A stretch of DNA of 64,000 nucleotides from the NCBI GenBank assembly GCA_038727515.1, contig JAVYVS010000001.1:448001-512000 (forward strand), written 5' to 3'. The position numbers and the translations under genes are program-made. Positions 2,375 to 39,564 of the stretch are shown here, one piece after another (within the stretch, counting starts at the first letter, position 1; each line of letters begins with the position of its first letter). The notes beneath the pieces were generated by a model. The model was not told the origin of the DNA, did no database searches, and saw nothing but the letters and a program-made list of their open reading frames with translations. The DNA is from Candidatus Methanomethylicia archaeon. Lineage in GTDB: Archaea; Thermoproteota; Methanomethylicia; Culexarchaeales; Culexarchaeaceae.

Positions 2375-3403
2375 CTACTTTAATTCTTCACCACATATTG
2401 TACAAAACTTTGCATCTTCAGTGGATATATGAGATTTTGAACACCATTTAACCTTTCTACCACAATATGGACAGAAATTAGCTCCCAATGGAACTTGCTT
2501 ACCACAATATGGACATACTGCAAATGCTGCTGGAGCAATAGGTGCAGTTGTAGGTGTTGGTTGTGCTGTAGGAACTTGAACTGGCGGTGGAGGCTGCATT
2601 AATGGTGGAATAATAACCATTCCAGTTCCAATACCAGCACCAGGACTTTTACCAATTTCCTTAGCAACCTCCTTTACAGTTTCCATTTGTAAAACATAGC
2701 CTGTTTGAACTCCACCACGCATCATCCAGAATAATCTATCACGCCAAGGACCTTCAGTATCAATACCCTCAAAAACAATGCTTTCAAGGGAAACACCAAT
2801 TTCTTTAAAATCTCTACGTAGAATCATGGTTGCACGTTCAGTAACTTCTGTTTGCTTCATATAAACATCTTGAATACTTGTGGAGCTTAGAAAAGCCATT
2901 ATTTTACTATTAAAGTATCCCCTCAAATAATCATTTAATTCATCAGTTGTAAAAACAGATTGTGGACCAACAACCTTATTTACAAATAAACTTGGATCTT
3001 CAATTCTAAAATAGAAGCTTCCATGGAAGAGTAATGGTGCAAGTTCAATAGTTTGAGTTCTACCACCAAATTTACCTTGAAAACGTCTTAATGAAATATA
3101 TATTATCATGCATCTGAATATGTTTTCACCATATAATCCCTCTACTAATCCACCAAGGAATGGGACATTCTGAGTATCCAATACATGTCTACCAGCACCC
3201 AAAACACCATAAAGCTTTCCATCACGATAGAATAATGCATTCTCAAATTCTTTAACAACCACTACACTACCCCAAGGTATAACTTCATCAGGATACTTCC
3301 AAACTATCTCAGTATCACCTGGATTAACCCATTCAATCAACTTAGGCTTCAAACCAGAAGCTCTAGCAATCTTACCAACACCCTTACCGAAAATATTCGC
3401 CAT
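2375..3403 (-). CDS. SPFH/band-7 domain protein with C-terminal double zinc ribbon (YdjI-like)
   Basis: IVWKYP...VVVKEFENALFYRDGK...GAGRHVLDTQNVP SPFH N-terminus, Pro-rich linker, CPYCG/CPYCG/CSKSH/CTICG; GGAGGTG RBS. Confidence 0.88.
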   Translation of the reverse strand: MANIFGKGVGKIARASGLKPKLIEWVNPGDTEIVWKYPDEVIPWGSVVVVKEFENALFYRDGKLYGVLGAGRHVLDTQNVPFLGGLVEGLYGENIFRCMIIYISLRRFQGKFGGRTQTIELAPLLFHGSFYFRIEDPSLFVNKVVGPQSVFTTDELNDYLRGYFNSKIMAFLSSTSIQDVYMKQTEVTERATMILRRDFKEIGVSLESIVFEGIDTEGPWRDRLFWMMRGGVQTGYVLQMETVKEVAKEIGKSPGAGIGTGMVIIPPLMQPPPPVQVPTAQPTPTTAPIAPAAFAVCPYCGKQVPLGANFCPYCGRKVKWCSKSHISTEDAKFCTICGEELK

Positions 3404-3414
3404 TAAAACACCTC

Positions 3415-3921
3415 CTACATACCCCTCAAAATTTTAAACCTCTTATCTAAAACATCATTAACCTTAGCTATATTATCGTTTATCTTACTAATCAATTCAG
3501 ATTTAATAGTTGAAGTAGAAGCTGAATCTCTAATACTCTTAGATAAATCCAGTATATCATTAACTATAGATACAAGTTCTTCATCACAACTCTTCATCCT
3601 CTCTAAATCGGGAATATCAACTTTAACAATATTATAATGTGGAGCATAACCAGATTCTGCAAACTTTAATTTATCACAAATCAACCTAACATTGGAAGCC
3701 AAAACATTAATTTTCCTCGCTAAGGTAAAATCAAATTCACTTATAATAGATGCAGCATCCTCCAAATAATTTTTAGCATCAGTAAGAAGCTTAACTAAAT
3801 AATTTCTTAGAAGTCTATCATCTTCACGTATAAGCTCCCTCTTCTTATAACCACTAAAGCCAGGAACATAAAGCTCCAATTTCTCAAGCCAAGTAAACTT
3901 CTTAGACAAAATGTACACCAA
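3415..3921 (-). CDS. Conserved alpha-helical hypothetical protein, first gene of the SPFH operon
   Basis: PGFSGYKKRELIREDDRLLR motif with helical character; likely start TTG at 3909 after GGTG. Confidence 0.7.
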   Translation of the reverse strand: MVYILSKKFTWLEKLELYVPGFSGYKKRELIREDDRLLRNYLVKLLTDAKNYLEDAASIISEFDFTLARKINVLASNVRLICDKLKFAESGYAPHYNIVKVDIPDLERMKSCDEELVSIVNDILDLSKSIRDSASTSTIKSELISKINDNIAKVNDVLDKRFKILRGM

Positions 3922-4000
3922 AAATAAAATATGTTGTATAAATAAAAATGTTTCATAAATTTGATAAAATCACAGTAATCTCATCTACAATCAAAATAAT

Positions 4001-4843
4001 TTAATCATACTTAAATAATGTCCCTAATAGAAAGAGTAATCCAATTATAGAAATAATTACATTAACATGATTATCCAAAATGCTTTTAATCAAACGATTC
4101 TGAACATAAATATCCATTATTGGATAATGCAGTGCATAATGATAACACTCTATCCTCAGAGAATTATAATCGATAGTCAAATCCCAAAAGGATATTTCTT
4201 CAGATTCAACATAATATTCATTAACAATAGTTGAAACATCATATCTAATCCCCCCTTTACAGATCAAAGTGTAGGGGGGTGTAATATTCATTTTATTTTC
4301 GATCTGCATCAAATCAAAACTTAAATATCTAAATTCTAAATTATCACCGGATGTACTAAGTTCAAGCCTATATACTTCTGCTTCCATGCCATCTTTTATC
4401 AAAATAATTTTAAACATGTATGAAAGTGATTCAATATTGATTTCAGATAACTTAACTAAACCTATAGAGTCAGGGTTAATGCTGAAAAGATAACTCACAT
4501 GTATATACAACTTAACACTGCTCCTATTTAGATGATGAAGTAGAAGGACTGCTGATGGATTACCATAAACTACATTTGAAAAATTTTTAGAAGAATCAAT
4601 ATAACAAGAAATATATGCTCCTCTATCAATATATGGACTAAGACTAACACAAGACGTACGAAATGAGTAAAAATTTTCCTCTATAATTTTGCCATTAATT
4701 TCAAGTTCAGGGCGTACCTGTAAACTAAATTTTATGTTATAAGGAAAAAATGATGATGGTATTAAGTAGAAGAAAAGACCACCAAATATCAATGAAAAAC
4801 TTAATATAAACTTACAATTCCTCTTTTTAACTTTAGAATTCAT
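4001..4843 (-). CDS. Hypothetical membrane-anchored protein
   Basis: 280-aa ORF with N- and C-terminal hydrophobic helices; no family recognised. Confidence 0.6.
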   Translation of the reverse strand: MNSKVKKRNCKFILSFSLIFGGLFFYLIPSSFFPYNIKFSLQVRPELEINGKIIEENFYSFRTSCVSLSPYIDRGAYISCYIDSSKNFSNVVYGNPSAVLLLHHLNRSSVKLYIHVSYLFSINPDSIGLVKLSEINIESLSYMFKIILIKDGMEAEVYRLELSTSGDNLEFRYLSFDLMQIENKMNITPPYTLICKGGIRYDVSTIVNEYYVESEEISFWDLTIDYNSLRIECYHYALHYPIMDIYVQNRLIKSILDNHVNVIISIIGLLFLLGTLFKYD

Positions 4844-33443: not shown

Positions 33444-34121
33444 CTAAACAACACTTAAAGTGGATTGAGAAACTTTGGGGATATTATTTAAGATATCTCT
33501 TGAAGAAATGTATAGGAAGATTGAAGCTAGAAAATCTAATGGTGGAATAAATATTCCAATTAAATAAATTATAGCAGAAACTAGAAATAGAGAACTACCG
33601 AATTCATCTCCAATCTTGAAAAGAGATGCTATAAGTCCAATCTTACCAATAAAAAATAATATAAGTCCAAGGAATACTGAAAGTAAACCAATTATAGGAA
33701 GGATTAAAATTAATAGTAAACCTACAATTATAATCGTAGCACCTGCAATATAACCTATTCTAACCATAGATGAATATGTGGAATAACTAGCATTAAATTC
33801 AGATAAATTCTTCATGGAATCCATTAAATATAGATATACAGCTGAAAGAAGGAGGATGCATCCTACTGTTATGATGAGGAATACAATTATAGAGAAAAGA
33901 CCATATGATTGTAAGGGTGTACCTATAAACCTCCTCATCAAAAATCTCATGTAAAACCAAATTAAACCAAATCCTAAAAGTAAATATGCAGAAATACTTA
34001 ACAAACAATAATTCTTAAGAGCATTAAAAGCTTTAATTAAATAATTCCGTTCAGAATCACTAAGCTTAGTCAAATCCCTAACCACAATACCCACCAAATC
34101 AGTTAATATGAGATAGATCAT
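33444..34121 (-). CDS. DUF973-like membrane protein
   Basis: Five to six TM helices; SSLF-x-VSAIIYLIG...LASIFLY pattern typical of crenarchaeal DUF973/DUF996 proteins. Confidence 0.6.
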   Translation of the reverse strand: MIYLILTDLVGIVVRDLTKLSDSERNYLIKAFNALKNYCLLSISAYLLLGFGLIWFYMRFLMRRFIGTPLQSYGLFSIIVFLIITVGCILLLSAVYLYLMDSMKNLSEFNASYSTYSSMVRIGYIAGATIIIVGLLLILILPIIGLLSVFLGLILFFIGKIGLIASLFKIGDEFGSSLFLVSAIIYLIGIFIPPLDFLASIFLYISSRDILNNIPKVSQSTLSVV

Positions 34122-35466
34122 CTATTAAAACTTTTTTAAGTTTAGCTAGAGCTTTTTCATGAGCAACCATAGGTTTAAATCCACTAGATTCTATTTCTCT
34201 AGCAAGATCAACATCAATAACTATCTTAAGCTTATCCATTAAACCCAAATCTGAAAAAGCATAATTAATTGCAGTTAAAGTTTCAGCATTAGGTCTAAAA
34301 TATGCATAAAAAAGCCTATAGTTTAATCCATGTTTAGATAAGTAATTTCTCACACGAATTCTAGTAACCTCAATATACTCCCTCTTAACATCTTCAGTTT
34401 CAAGCCATTCAGGCCAATCATAAGATTGAAAGGGATAATAACTTATGAATTCATATGGAATTACACCTGGACTACTAACAGCAATTAAATGTATTCTTGG
34501 AAAGAATTCAATTCTAGAAAGAACTTCAAGAATTGCTTTCCAAGTTTTAGATCTAGTATAGGGTTTCCTATAAGCACAAGGAAGAAATAAAGCTATATCC
34601 TTATGTTTAGGAGGTTTATAAAATCTAATTATATAATCTTGCCAAACTTCATAATATGGGTGAATTAAACATTCACGGCCAACCCCATAAATAAAAACTT
34701 GTTTATCCCTTGGAAACTTGGGAATGAAATTTAAATTGTTAAAATCAAGTTCAACTTTAGGATGATTAACCCATTCACCCACAAAATTATGGAATTGTTC
34801 TTCATCAAAAGGCTTCCACACACCTTTAATCCAATCTTCCCATAGATTTGAACCTACATGTGGATAAGCATTAATAACAACAACACTATCAGCAATATCA
34901 ACAGCCAACCTAATACTATCTTCAAAAATCTTCCTATGAAATTCAGGATTCAAATATAAATATGGATGACCATTAACTAAAATATAAAGTCTAACACCAA
35001 AACCAAAACCCCTTAGAATTTTCACAGCCCCAATTATATCCTCAACTACTAACCCCTTATTATAATAATTAAGGAGAACATCATCATTAGCCATCTCTAA
35101 ACCAATAGCCACAGTAACTTTAACTTTCTCACTAAAAAGTAATTTCAATCTATCTTCAATAATATATTCAGGTCTAGATTCAACTATAAGTTCATTAATA
35201 CCGAAATTTTCACATAAACGAATAAACCAAACAATAAATTCATCTGGAAACTGTTTAACATCAAGAAAACTACCAGAAGAAAAAACCTTTAATAAATCTA
35301 TTTTCCCCTCCCTACGTTTAGAACTAAGGAAGTTGAAAACCCTACCCTTCAATTCATCCAATGAACATTTAACACTATGCTTACCCCAACCACAAAAATA
35401 ACATTTACCCCAACTACAACTACCACTCTCAAGAATTAAATTCACAATACGCTTACCAACACCCAC
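34099..35466 (-). CDS. RaSEA-type radical SAM protein fused to an ArcS/DUF5591-type domain
   Basis: CSWGKCYFC, FSSGSFLD, ESRPEY and AIGLE...NKG (RaSEA/TIGR01210-like) followed by LPCAYRKPYTRSKT and YDW (ArcS-like). Confidence 0.8.
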   Translation of the reverse strand: MGVGKRIVNLILESGSCSWGKCYFCGWGKHSVKCSLDELKGRVFNFLSSKRREGKIDLLKVFSSGSFLDVKQFPDEFIVWFIRLCENFGINELIVESRPEYIIEDRLKLLFSEKVKVTVAIGLEMANDDVLLNYYNKGLVVEDIIGAVKILRGFGFGVRLYILVNGHPYLYLNPEFHRKIFEDSIRLAVDIADSVVVINAYPHVGSNLWEDWIKGVWKPFDEEQFHNFVGEWVNHPKVELDFNNLNFIPKFPRDKQVFIYGVGRECLIHPYYEVWQDYIIRFYKPPKHKDIALFLPCAYRKPYTRSKTWKAILEVLSRIEFFPRIHLIAVSSPGVIPYEFISYYPFQSYDWPEWLETEDVKREYIEVTRIRVRNYLSKHGLNYRLFYAYFRPNAETLTAINYAFSDLGLMDKLKIVIDVDLAREIESSGFKPMVAHEKALAKLKKVLIDDLSHIN

Positions 35467-35505
35467 AGTTTAAATGTGGATATAAGCATAAATTATATTT
35501 ATCGT

Positions 35506-36195
35506 TTAACTTTCCTTCACAATTTTAACTGCAGTACCATAAACTGAAAATGCCATAGCTGAACCTGCAAGTATATCGGTAGTTTCAAAATCCAAACCAA
35601 TAATAGCATTAGCACCAAGCTTTCTGGCTCTATCTATAAGTCTAAGAAGAGCTTCAATCCTAGCCTTCTCAAACTCATATACAAAAGCTGTAATTTCACC
35701 ACCAAAAAGTGATTCTATTGAAGCAGCAAGTTTACCTCCAAGACCTCTAGTTCTAATAGTTAAACCATAAACTGGCCCTATAATTTCAACAATCTTATAA
35801 CCTGGAATATATGGGGTTGTAACAAGAATCATATCGCTAAGCCTACCCCTATACATCTTCATAAGATCTTCAAGTTCAATTTCCTCAGGACTCTTAGAAG
35901 GTTTCGTTATTAAGTTTAAACCTTCATTAATTAATTTATCCCACCAAGAAAGATTTGATGCAGCAATTTTAACAGCTTCATCAAACGATTTACCAGAAGA
36001 AATTAATTCTTCAACTTCATCAACTTTAACACCATTATCATATGCAAGCCTAATAAAAGCTTCAACAATTGAAGCCTTCCTTTCACTTTGAATCTTACTT
36101 AAATGAAAACGCATTACACCACCAGGATTATGTGGATATTTCGAATCATAAATACTAACTAAAGAATTATACACTTTATCAAAACTTGACATCAA
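35506..36195 (-). CDS. YbjQ/UPF0145 family protein with N-terminal extension
   Basis: C-terminal TTPYIPGYKI...GGE...AR-x-x-A...LGANAIIG...YGTAV; about 120 aa extra N-terminal helical region. Confidence 0.88.
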   Translation of the reverse strand: MMSSFDKVYNSLVSIYDSKYPHNPGGVMRFHLSKIQSERKASIVEAFIRLAYDNGVKVDEVEELISSGKSFDEAVKIAASNLSWWDKLINEGLNLITKPSKSPEEIELEDLMKMYRGRLSDMILVTTPYIPGYKIVEIIGPVYGLTIRTRGLGGKLAASIESLFGGEITAFVYEFEKARIEALLRLIDRARKLGANAIIGLDFETTDILAGSAMAFSVYGTAVKIVKES

Positions 36196-36274
36196 AATAA
36201 TATATGTATAAGTAAAATAAAAAGTTTAGGAGTGTCGATTACTTTATATGTATAATGGAAAATAAAGAATCTAC

Positions 36275-37069
36275 GTGTACAATATTAGTAAGTTGATATT
36301 TTCAATAATATCGGTTACAATTGTGAGTTTGATATCATTAATTGGGGTTTTTGCATTATCATTGAAGGAAGGGAAATTGCATAAAATTCTCTTCATACTA
36401 TTGGGTTTTAGTGGTGGAGTTATATTGGGATCAGCATTATTAGATTTACTTCCAGAATCCATTGAGATAAGTAGATCATCTATTGAGGAATTGCAGACTT
36501 TTATATACATAACTTTTGGATTCATATTATTTTTCATTCTTGAAAGATTTATATATTGGTATCATGGTCATGGGCATCATGAAGAGATAGAAGAAGAATG
36601 TAAAAGAATACGTAAAATGGAGTTAAAAGAGTTAATAGCGTTAAATGTGATTGGTGATGCTATACATAATTTCCTTGATGGAATGATAATTTCAGCATCA
36701 TACTTAACGTCAATTGAACTTGGAATAACAACTACTATTGCAGTAATATTCCATGAATTACCACAAGAAATAGGGGATTTCGGAATATTAATTTATGGTG
36801 GATTGAATGTGACAAAGGCATTAATGTTAAATTTGCTTTCAGCATTAACATCCTTTATAGGAGTATTAGTAATTCAAATGGCATATTCAATCATTGAAAA
36901 TATTAGTTTAATGATAATACCAATGGCTTGTGGAGGATTCATATACTTAGCAGCATCAGAAATTATACCAGAATTACAAAAGGAGAGAAATTTTAGGAGG
37001 GCATTTATTCAATTAGTATTCTTTCAATTGGGAATAATTTTAATATGGCTTTTGAATAAATTAATTTAA
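36275..37069 (+). CDS. ZIP family zinc/iron importer
   Basis: HGHGHHEE loop, GDAIHNFLDG and HELPQEIGDF motifs. Confidence 0.93.
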   Translation: MYNISKLIFSIISVTIVSLISLIGVFALSLKEGKLHKILFILLGFSGGVILGSALLDLLPESIEISRSSIEELQTFIYITFGFILFFILERFIYWYHGHGHHEEIEEECKRIRKMELKELIALNVIGDAIHNFLDGMIISASYLTSIELGITTTIAVIFHELPQEIGDFGILIYGGLNVTKALMLNLLSALTSFIGVLVIQMAYSIIENISLMIIPMACGGFIYLAASEIIPELQKERNFRRAFIQLVFFQLGIILIWLLNKLI

Positions 37070-37124
37070 ATTACTACCTTTAATAGAAGCCACATTGTAG
37101 AAGGGGGAAATTTTAGGGTATATA

Positions 37125-39053
37125 TTAACTACACTTTAATTTAGTTAAACGTAGAGAGTTTAGCAGTATTAGTAGAGTTAAACCGTCATCACCTATAGCT
37201 ACAGCAAACCATAGTGGAATTAAACCTAAAAATCCAAGAAAACCGAGGAGCATTTTAACTCCAATGGATATGAAAATGTTTTGTTTAGCTATACTCATGG
37301 TTTTCCTACTTAATCTAATTAAATGTTGTATAAGACTTAATTTATTGTTGATTAAGATTACATCAGCAGATTCCAATGCTGCATCAACTCCACTACCCAT
37401 TGCAATACCAACATTTGAAGCAGCTAATGCAGGAGCATCATTAACACCATCACCAACCATAGCTACAAATCCATACCTACCTTTAGCATCTTCAATTATC
37501 TTCAATTTTTCATCTGGAGATAAATCTGCATAAACCTCATTTATTCCAATGGTATTAGCAATACCCATAGCTATATCAAATCTATCACCAGTAATAAGCA
37601 TAGGTTTAATTCCCAAATCAATTAAACTTTCAATTGTAGATTTAGCTTCCTCCCTTACATCATCGAAGAAACATATGGATGCATTAATAGATCTATTAAT
37701 TGATACGCATATAGACGTATGATTATCCCCTTCTAGTATTATTGTGGGATCCTCACAATTACAAGAATATTTCAACATCATATCTAAATTTCCAACAAAA
37801 ACTTCTAAACCATTAACATAACCAATAATCCCCTCACCAGGAAGCTCTTTAACACCTTCAACACGGAGATTTTCAAATGGTAAATTTCTCTTGGAAGCTT
37901 CTTCAACAATTGCTTTAGCAATTGGATGATTAGAAAAACGTTCTAAAGCAGCAGCATACATTAAAATTTCATCACTAGCATTATTAATGTGTTTAATATT
38001 ATGCACCCTTGGAAAACCAAAAGTTAATGTTCCAGTCTTATCGAATAATATAGCTTTAATCTTACTCAAATTCTCTATGTAAATTCCACCTTTAACGAGA
38101 ATTCCACATTTAGATGCAACAATTATTGCAATGAAAATTGTTGATGGAATAGAAATTATAAATGCACTTGGACAAGAAATAACAATTAATATTAGTGATT
38201 TATATATCCATGAATCCATAGATCCACCGAAAAATATTGGACCAATAACAACGATTAATATGGAAGATAAAATTATTATTGGAACATAAAATCTAGAGAA
38301 TTTATCAACTAATCTCTCTACATTAGCCTTTCTAGATCTAGCTTCTACAACTAGATTTACAATTCTTGAAATAAAGGATTCTTCAACCCTCTTATCAACC
38401 TTAATCTTAAGTACACCATCCATATTCATTGTACCAGCATAAACGTTATCACCAGACTTCATCAATACTGGATTTGACTCACCAGTAACTATTGATTGAT
38501 CCACCATAGATTGACCATCAATAATCACACCATCAAATGGAATTCTCTCTCCAGGTTTAACTAGAATTACATCACCAATAGATACAGAATTTAAATCAAC
38601 ATACTCTTCACCTTCACCAACTAAAACTCTAGCTTTATTTGGAAGTAATTTTGAAAAAGACTCTATATGTCTCCTAACTATATCCTCAATGAATAATTCA
38701 AGATACTCTGAAATAGAGAATAATAGGAGAACCATTGTAGCTTCAAAATGTAAATTTAAATATAAAGCTCCAAATGCAGCGATAGACATTAAAATTTCAA
38801 TGGAAATATTCCTTTCAAAAATTAATTCTCTAAAACCCAATAAACCAATTAAACCTCCAACAAAAATAATTACAAGAGTATACAAAAACTTTGAAAAATA
38901 AATTTCACCATCAAAAAAAGGTGGGAAGATTATTGGAAAATCTAAGTAAACAAAAACACTAAGAATACTAGAAACAATAATTGCAAAAGATAAGGTTACA
39001 ACTAATAAAAACCAAAATTTACCTCTATCATCATCCACAATTCTAAAATCCAT
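37125..39053 (-). CDS. Heavy-metal-translocating P1B-type ATPase
   Basis: TGES, SCPS, DKTGT, SNHP, TGD and GDGVNDAP motifs; no N-terminal HMA domain. Confidence 0.93.
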   Translation of the reverse strand: MDFRIVDDDRGKFWFLLVVTLSFAIIVSSILSVFVYLDFPIIFPPFFDGEIYFSKFLYTLVIIFVGGLIGLLGFRELIFERNISIEILMSIAAFGALYLNLHFEATMVLLLFSISEYLELFIEDIVRRHIESFSKLLPNKARVLVGEGEEYVDLNSVSIGDVILVKPGERIPFDGVIIDGQSMVDQSIVTGESNPVLMKSGDNVYAGTMNMDGVLKIKVDKRVEESFISRIVNLVVEARSRKANVERLVDKFSRFYVPIIILSSILIVVIGPIFFGGSMDSWIYKSLILIVISCPSAFIISIPSTIFIAIIVASKCGILVKGGIYIENLSKIKAILFDKTGTLTFGFPRVHNIKHINNASDEILMYAAALERFSNHPIAKAIVEEASKRNLPFENLRVEGVKELPGEGIIGYVNGLEVFVGNLDMMLKYSCNCEDPTIILEGDNHTSICVSINRSINASICFFDDVREEAKSTIESLIDLGIKPMLITGDRFDIAMGIANTIGINEVYADLSPDEKLKIIEDAKGRYGFVAMVGDGVNDAPALAASNVGIAMGSGVDAALESADVILINNKLSLIQHLIRLSRKTMSIAKQNIFISIGVKMLLGFLGFLGLIPLWFAVAIGDDGLTLLILLNSLRLTKLKCS

Positions 39054-39165
39054 TTAAACCTAAATCACATCAATATTAAACAAATATTAAACTTATGCTA
39101 AAAATTAAAGTAAAAATATTAATGTAATATTATTTCAATGTTAGAATGTTAATATAGGTGGAAAT

Positions 39166-39564
39166 ATGACTGTCGTAAGCATAACAATACCAGATGAATT
39201 ATTAAGTAGATTTGATGAATTTATTAAAACACGTGGATACTATAGTAGATCAGAAGCATTTAGAGATGCCATTAGAAGTTTACTTGCAGAAGCAGAAATA
39301 TCAAAATTAAAAGAAGGGAAAATTGCTGCAACCATAATGATAACATACGATTATAATAGTAGAGATATAGATTTAAGATTAAGTGAGATTAGACATGAAT
39401 TTGATGATGCAATAATCGAGAATATACATAGACATGTAGATCAGAAATACTGTTTAGAAATACTTATTGTTGAAGGAAGTAATGATAGAATAATGAGGTT
39501 AATTGGGAGAATAAGAGGTTTAAGAGGGATACAGCAAGTAAAAGCTATATACATGGAACTTTAA
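39166..39564 (+). CDS. nikR: NikR-family ribbon-helix-helix metal-responsive regulator
   Basis: VSITIP...SRSEAFRDAIR RHH domain; H...HxH...CLE metal site conserved; GGTGG RBS. Confidence 0.88.
   Translation: MTVVSITIPDELLSRFDEFIKTRGYYSRSEAFRDAIRSLLAEAEISKLKEGKIAATIMITYDYNSRDIDLRLSEIRHEFDDAIIENIHRHVDQKYCLEILIVEGSNDRIMRLIGRIRGLRGIQQVKAIYMEL

Follow-up and report, generated by a model that had tools for sequence, protein, structure and literature searches.

Archaeosine (G+) at G15 is a hallmark of archaeal tRNA. To our knowledge, the enzyme for the last step of its formation is known only for the Euryarchaeota (ArcS with RaSEA) and for some Crenarchaeota (QueF-like and Gat-QueC). Here we present an analysis of a gene in a 64,000-nucleotide stretch of DNA (the window) from a Candidatus Methanomethylicia archaeon of the family Culexarchaeaceae, a hot-spring organism (contig JAVYVS010000001.1, positions 448,001 to 512,000). 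This gene, at 34099-35466 of the window, joins a RaSEA-like radical-SAM (S-adenosylmethionine) domain to a DUF5591 domain, the C1 catalytic core of ArcS, and its sequence suggests that it probably encodes a single-chain archaeosine synthase.

In Thermococcus kodakarensis ArcS transfers lysine to tRNA carrying 7-cyano-7-deazaguanine (preQ0) only in complex with RaSEA and is inactive alone, while RaSEA cleaves preQ0-Lys to G+ (PMC11298593, citing Yokogawa 2019). This need for RaSEA gives a reason for a fusion of the two. The T. kodakarensis ArcS-RaSEA pair also accepts preQ0 nucleoside and 5'-P-preQ0 (PMC11298593), so a tRNA-binding module is not chemically required. We encountered no mention of a RaSEA-ArcS fusion, TIGR01210, or archaeosine in Culexarchaeia in the searchable literature, although a prior description is possible.

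The fusion gene and its domains

The open reading frame (ORF) at 34099-35466 (minus strand) has 455 open codons and a GTG start. Its features are as follows.

34099..35466, minus strand: fusion gene (P0001) for a 455-aa radical-SAM (RaSEA-like)::DUF5591 (ArcS C1) protein; open frame, homologues and AlphaFold2 model
34885..35448, minus strand: RaSEA-like radical-SAM domain; TIGR01210 match, residues 7-194
35392..35418, minus strand: [4Fe-4S]/SAM cluster motif CX4CX2C, CSWGKCYFC, with C17, C22 and C25; from the translation
34330..34644, minus strand: DUF5591 / ArcS C1 catalytic-core domain; Pfam PF17884 match, residues 275-379
34540..34581, minus strand: ArcS signature PC-x3-KPY-x2-S-x2-[H/W], here PCAYRKPYTRSKTW, P296-W309; from the translation

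The RaSEA-like fold extends past the TIGR01210 match to approximately residue 235, and the Rossmann-like fold of the DUF5591 domain reaches the C-terminus of the protein. Three RaSEA-type blocks, FSSGSFLD (residues 62-69), ESRPEY (96-101) and AIGLEMANDDVLLNYYNKG (AIGLE...NKG; 120-138), align together with the cysteine triad to canonical RaSEA and are conserved family-wide. All of the motifs quoted in the initial annotation of this ORF are present in the translation.

That annotation had described a RaSEA-like/ArcS-core fusion without TGT (tRNA-guanine transglycosylase) or PUA domains and had named TIGR01210 and DUF5591 as the models to search. Both match, the first below its cut-off of 212 bits and the second above its own of 26. 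The match to TIGR01210 (RaSEA) scores 105.9 bits [2.3e-30; model positions 15-204 of 313], the next-best radical-SAM family for the N-terminal half being Elp3 at 23 bits (NCBIfam); Pfam yields a weak, generic Radical_SAM match there. The DUF5591 model PF17884 scores 52.3 bits [7.3e-14]. The two ArcS 'subunit alpha' models, NF053620 and NF040592, match over the C1 part only, the two scores being 46.6 and 54.5 bits; a canonical ArcS used as comparison scores 481 bits, with a PUA hit. No TGT or PUA family matched the fusion protein at E<=1 in the Pfam search, which bears out the domain description. Aligned with a bona fide 304-aa RaSEA from an Archaeoglobales genome, which itself scores 395 bits to TIGR01210 end to end, the fusion protein shows 32% identity over residues 1-219 [3e-34].

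Breadth and conservation of the family

In the protein search, full-length homologues with both Pfam domains numbered more than 120; they are 420-470 aa long and cover 87-100% of the query at 39-90% identity with E values down to 1e-287. A protein identical to the fusion is recorded in eight contigs. The protein described here has the length of the family, the N-terminal CX4CX2C radical-SAM domain and the C-terminal DUF5591 domain with PC-x3-KPY-x2-S, and it aligns with other members end to end. Among contigs chosen as one genome per species there are at least 550 encoding stretches, and these lie in the Culexarchaeia, Thermofilaceae, Thermodiscus, Desulfurococcales, Asgardarchaeum and many Altiarchaeota. 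The carriers within DPANN are Aenigmat-, Micr-, Woese-, Nano-, Nanohalo-, Iain- and Parvarchaeota. The domain fusion is an architecture far beyond chance. The family is unnamed: the few members with a name are labelled 'DUF5591 domain-containing protein' or 'radical SAM protein' (the NCBI labels), 'hypothetical' or, by JGI, 'archaeosine synthase'.

The closest relatives, at 77% identity, are from Candidatus Culexarchaeum, in agreement with the non-euryarchaeal origin proposed at the outset. The family tree broadly tracks taxonomy and places the protein inside a well-supported Culexarchaeota clade.

Of 121 family members, 117 have the cysteine triad; the remaining four look N-terminally truncated. 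The ArcS motif occurs in all 121, its final residue being His in 88, Trp in 32 and Phe in one. The H and W forms interleave on one tree, within the same lineages, and H/W has switched at least 2-4 times; therefore, on these sequences, Trp is a tolerated and recurrent family variant. The initial annotation correctly reported the exchange of His for Trp (W309), which is not peculiar to this gene. Its reading as an inactivating or gene-specific change is ruled out by the recurrence of W in 32 of the 121 members.

An alignment of 40 diverse members (A1) contains 40 invariant positions, among them C17, C22, C25, P296, C297, K301, P302, Y303, S306, S331, P337, Y344 and Y349. Adding a canonical ArcS and DUF5591-only proteins to the comparison leaves most of those in the C-terminal domain invariant, and E339 and D350 are invariant there too; the exception is S306.

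Structure

An AlphaFold2 model computed on 40 homologues (mean predicted local distance difference test score 94.8; predicted template-modelling score 0.89) confidently predicts the fusion as one body. Among solved structures, the N-terminal half is nearest in fold to the radical-SAM domains of Elp3 and to queuine lyase, the latter (6p78; E 1.8e-9; template-modelling score 0.65) being its best solved relative. PDB entry 2q07 (AF0587, ArcS-like) matches the C-terminal half by both sequence and fold. No structure of the ArcS-RaSEA complex turned up among the solved structures.

Gene content of the genome and the supply of preQ0

The genome is a 1.59-Mb assembly in 12 contigs, 93.6% complete, and the following results are for this assembly. 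A 531-aa TgtA is encoded on a different contig from the fusion (TIGR00432, 517 bits, no PUA hit), and its C1 domain is the sole further DUF5591 match. Neither canonical ArcS nor any other ArcS-like DUF5591 protein was found, nor were a separate RaSEA, QueF or QueF-like, QueD, or QueC or Gat-QueC (only 16-24-bit echoes on other PP-loop proteins). DpdA was likewise not found, its model giving only a 23-bit echo on TgtA. The gene inventory which the initial annotation proposed to check, tgtA without separate arcS, queF-like or gat-queC, is the one recovered, and the fusion is the only candidate in this genome for the last step to archaeosine.

The absence of QueC and QueD had been overlooked; as judged from gene content, the pathway must start from imported preQ0. 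The genome encodes a YhhQ-type queuosine-precursor transporter (TIGR00697; 85.5 bits, cut-off 51; G000 C1:38916-39536, locus L093). In two sister genomes from this family (99% and 95% complete) the fusion and TgtA are likewise present and QueC and QueD missing. On this gene content, the Culexarchaeal lineage is predicted to be incapable of preQ0 synthesis and probably imports preQ0 and inserts it by TgtA. Since QueC and QueD are missing and a YhhQ-type transporter is present, the preQ0 is most likely scavenged from the environment, and a core tRNA modification is thereby predicted to depend on this outside supply.

Comparison across genomes

Two samples were compared: 201 Thermoproteota genomes, and 30 fusion-bearing genomes from the Culexarchaeia, Thermoproteota, Asgard, Altiarchaeota and DPANN. 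The members of the second are mutually related and their counts are descriptive, not statistical. TgtA is above its cut-off in 29 of the 30 fusion genomes, and none of the 30 encodes a second ArcS-like DUF5591 protein or QueF-like. QueC occurs in 10 of them, nearly always at plain length, with one long frame in a single fragmented metagenome-assembled genome. A YhhQ-type transporter is found in seven, all of which are among the 20 without QueC.

In the Thermoproteota TgtA is present in 177 of the 201 genomes, QueF-like in 21 (three families) and long, Gat-QueC-sized QueC frames in about 19. Five genomes have the full-length fusion. They belong to two families, one being the Culexarchaeaceae and the other represented by two complete genomes of 1.3-1.4 Mb (G117 and G172), and none of the five is in the QueF-like or the long-QueC set. 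G117 and G172 are probably Ignicoccus, to judge from a named I. pacificus protein which falls in the fusion family at the same identity. Both have plain QueC, QueD, a TgtA-type match and the fusion, and QueF-like was not found in them. Their TgtA matches (E 1e-78 and 1e-94) are much weaker than those elsewhere in the phylum (approximately 1e-150), which is consistent with a split or divergent tgtA. Such genes are known for Nanoarchaeum and others.

Other families of this phylum differ in their gene content. In family f7 all 28 genomes combine TgtA with plain QueC and contain no known archaeosine synthase, and most genomes of the other Methanomethylicia families (f2-f4) have plain QueC, again with none of these synthases. 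Family f23 (G029, G109, G152, G159) has a Gat-QueC-sized QueC (frames of 465-477 aa) along with a DUF5591-only protein of about 200 aa.

A sister Culexarchaeaceae genome contains, on an 11-kb contig, a four-gene cluster (L091; G197:C24, 599-4853, minus strand) encoding a divergent TGT/DpdA-like protein (344 aa), a sliding-clamp-like protein (255 aa), a DUF5591-only protein whose motif ends in Y (243 aa) and a HerA-like ATPase (554 aa). From the sequences it looks like a DpdA/ArcS2-type module for 7-deazaguanine modification of DNA or for defence, possibly on a virus or mobile element.

Gene neighbourhood and linkage

An unfused counterpart of the two domains is a three-gene operon in another Thermoproteota genome (G028), which lacks QueC and QueD and has TgtA.

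L089 (G028:C6) 1915-2661: YhhQ-type transporter, first gene
L089 (G028:C6) 2741-3436: DUF5591-only protein, 231 aa, second gene
L089 (G028:C6) 3433-4155: RaSEA-like radical-SAM protein, 240 aa, third gene, with a 4-nt overlap

In this operon the two modules, although unfused, are still found together, and the transporter gene ties them to 7-deazaguanine uptake.

Across 79 related loci tgtA lies within 8 kb of the fusion gene, divergent or on the opposite strand, in 13, which represent several DPANN clades. Clustering of the flanking ORFs of these loci revealed, besides TgtA, recurrent Hef-like helicase-nuclease, HisA/F-like, M24 peptidase, TatD, CBS and Toprim proteins. These were ruled out as functional partners, their recurrence being lineage synteny, mostly within the Altiarchaeota. 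The same clustering gave no recurring tailoring gene beside the fusion other than TgtA.

The neighbours in the window are a YbjQ-like protein, a ZIP transporter, a P-type ATPase, NikR, a DUF973 protein, a 2-oxoacid:ferredoxin oxidoreductase, a phosphatase and an isochorismatase. A metal-homeostasis cluster (35506-39564) lies directly upstream of the fusion gene.

35467..35505, minus strand: 39-nt A/T-rich spacer with a TATA-like run, aaatataatttat; from sequence reading only
35506-36195, minus strand: YbjQ-domain protein
36275-37069, plus strand: ZIP transporter
37125-39053, minus strand: P-type ATPase
39166-39564, plus strand: NikR-type regulator

The spacer runs from the stop codon of the ybjQ-like upstream gene to the GTG of the fusion gene and is possibly the latter's own promoter, with a very short leader. 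Downstream, the listed coordinates of a DUF973-like ORF (33444-34121, minus strand) give it an overlap of 23 nt with the 3' end of the fusion gene; its translation may in fact begin at a later ATG, or the ORF may be co-transcribed with the fusion gene.

Proposed function

From the domain identities, the conserved catalytic motifs, the breadth of the family, the gene content of the genomes and the gene linkage we infer what the substrates and the product are, that lysine donates the amine, and in which order the steps run. TgtA, encoded elsewhere in the genome, would place preQ0 at G15 of the tRNA. The C-terminal DUF5591 domain would join the epsilon-amino group of lysine to the nitrile of preQ0, giving preQ0-Lys, and the N-terminal RaSEA-like domain, with a [4Fe-4S] cluster on C17, C22 and C25 and with SAM, would then cut the C-N bond of the lysine to leave the formamidine of G+. 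A permanent tether in cis would replace the obligate ArcS/RaSEA complex of Thermococcus, and the enzyme would function with no dedicated RNA-binding module.

A number of observations weigh against this function. The TIGR01210 score of 105.9 bits is far below the NCBI equivalog cut-off of 212.15, so that the protein does not qualify as a whole RaSEA, and the C-terminus of RaSEA (the last 80-100 or so residues or model positions) is not present. The ArcS models, at 47-55 bits, likewise fall far short of their cut-offs (440 and 600). The RNA-binding modules of ArcS are all absent, and Trp stands in place of the final His of the published motif, this being the only residue at which PCAYRKPYTRSKTW departs from the complete PC-x3-KPY-x2-S-x2-H. 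By NCBI equivalog criteria the fusion protein is neither ArcS nor RaSEA; it belongs to a distinct family joining both catalytic cores. Furthermore, Methanocaldococcus jannaschii ArcS is reported to form G+ without a radical-SAM partner, using NH4+, Gln or Asn as donor (PMC11298593), and the phage protein ArcS2, which consists of DUF5591 only, is reported to give the deoxy form (dG+) in DNA, also without such a partner; therefore DUF5591 alone cannot indicate lysine chemistry. None of the neighbouring genes in the window is connected with tRNA or deazaguanine, and tgtA lies on a different contig. Lastly, most TgtA-bearing Thermoproteota in the sample of 201 have no known G+ synthase, be it the fusion, QueF-like or a Gat-QueC-sized QueC, and the absence of alternatives is therefore weak evidence alone. 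In such genomes either preQ0 stays unmodified or a further enzyme exists.

The alternative which survives best, an unlikely one in our opinion, is a salvage-side enzyme acting on the free 7-deazaguanine base, nucleoside or nucleotide before insertion by TgtA; possible roles are the conversion of imported preQ0 to the G+ base and the liberation of a usable base from some scavenged precursor. Such a role would suit the queuine lyase likeness of the N-terminal domain, this lyase being a radical-SAM salvage enzyme, as well as the operon which the split form shares with a YhhQ-type precursor transporter. It would also suit the lack of QueC in 20 of the 30 fusion genomes and in the genome studied here, the missing RNA-binding module, and the acceptance of preQ0 nucleoside and 5'-P-preQ0 by T. 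kodakarensis ArcS. However, the fusion is also found in genomes with plain QueC which make preQ0 (Altiarchaeota, Iainarchaeum and the Ignicoccus-like pair), its RaSEA match is far better than that to any other radical-SAM family, linkage to tgtA is far more frequent than linkage to the transporter, and TgtA is known to insert preQ0.

It is quite unlikely that the same scaffold acts on preQ0 in tRNA with other chemistry, that is, with a different amine donor or product (such as a derivative of G+ or a stable amidine adduct). In its favour, the RaSEA-like half has diverged, scoring half the curated cut-off with about 100 C-terminal model positions gone; the last residue of the motif may be H, W or F; and the known ArcS enzymes themselves differ in donor, lysine in T. 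kodakarensis versus NH4+, Gln or Asn in M. jannaschii. Against this, the radical-SAM triad and all of the residues invariant in DUF5591 are retained, the interleaving of H and W forms on one tree and within lineages suggests one function, and no other tailoring gene recurs beside the fusion.

Modification of cellular or viral DNA to dG+ in the manner of phage DpdA and ArcS2, for which the phage DUF5591-only proteins and the DpdA-like TGT/clamp-like/DUF5591-only/HerA-like cluster of the sister genome offer precedents, is highly improbable for a conserved single-copy gene whose tree tracks taxonomy and whose neighbours are housekeeping genes with no defence or mobile-element context, and it is rejected for this genome, which has no DpdA and whose single transglycosylase is a bona fide TgtA.

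Archaeosine synthesis on tRNA by the single chain is thus the reading we retain. On balance we also favour, with somewhat less assurance, its extension to the family: in DPANN, Altiarchaeota, Asgard and part of TACK the radical-SAM::DUF5591 fusion would be the archaeosine synthase that has long been missing, a self-contained enzyme working in two steps (lysine addition and radical cleavage) with no tRNA-binding module, and in the Culexarchaeia and most DPANN it would complete a scavenging route from YhhQ-type preQ0 import through TgtA to the fusion. Carriers of this route would then have to obtain the deazaguanine ring of this core tRNA modification from neighbouring organisms. The gene content (no QueC or QueD, and a transporter) predicts preQ0 cross-feeding in hot-spring communities. 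The fusion appears to be present in cultured Ignicoccus species, where the predicted synthase activity is directly testable.

The initial annotation held that an active fusion would demonstrate that DUF5591 alone is enough for lysine transfer. This would not follow: here DUF5591 is covalently tied to a RaSEA-like domain, and in T. kodakarensis ArcS needs RaSEA for its activity (PMC11298593), so the fusion could not demonstrate such sufficiency. If active, it would mean that an enzyme with a RaSEA-like domain attached can do without the TGT-like, C2 and PUA modules, the minimal catalytic unit of the lysine route being the C1 core plus the radical-SAM core. Activity of the family would also assign the last archaeosine step in large, mostly uncultured parts of the archaeal tree, and would provide a compact single-chain protein for structural work, the tRNA-bound structure of the complex being still wanted (PMC11298593). 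New from the Culexarchaeal case are an unlinked, salvage-dependent fusion, the recurrent H/W variation, the split transporter operon and the gene-content tests across genomes.

Comparison with known systems

The ArcS-RaSEA complex of T. kodakarensis (NF040592 plus TIGR01210) shares with the fusion the DUF5591/C1 core with PC-x3-KPY-x2-S, a RaSEA-type domain with CX4CX2C, FSSGSFLD, ESRPE and AIGLE, and TgtA as genomic partner; the modules which are interdependent there are joined here. It differs in consisting of two proteins of approximately 540-580 and 300 aa, as against one chain of 455 aa. The fusion lacks the TGT-like N-terminal domain, C2 and PUA, a linker replaces the C-terminal 80-100 or so residues of RaSEA, its motif ends in Trp, both of its halves are well below the curated cut-offs, and it lies outside the Euryarchaeota.

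The split pair of G028 likewise has two minimal modules without TGT or PUA, in a genome with TgtA and without QueC and QueD. Unlike the fusion, it is encoded by two overlapping genes (4 nt) in the reverse order, DUF5591 first, is linked to a transporter, and has a more divergent radical-SAM half (45 bits to TIGR01210).

Viral ArcS2 (Vibrio phage nt-1, STSV-2) resembles the C-terminal half as a DUF5591 core without TGT-like or PUA domains which makes an archaeosine-type amidine from preQ0. It has no radical-SAM domain, is paired with DpdA and acts on DNA, whereas in the fusion DUF5591 is joined to a radical-SAM domain, no DpdA-type gene is adjacent, and TgtA is the only transglycosylase of a genome without DpdA.

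Queuine lyase (6p78) and Elp3 have the CX4CX2C motif of the N-terminal half, and the reaction of queuine lyase, too, is the cleavage of a C-N bond in a 7-deazaguanine derivative; the sequence match is weaker than that to RaSEA (40 versus 106 bits), and neither has a DUF5591 partner domain. QueF-like and Gat-QueC of the Crenarchaeota have been proposed for the same step from preQ0 to G+ in TgtA-bearing archaea. They are unrelated to the fusion in fold and chemistry, the one being a T-fold amidinotransferase and the other a glutamine amidotransferase fused to QueC, and in the sampled genomes their distribution does not overlap that of the fusion.

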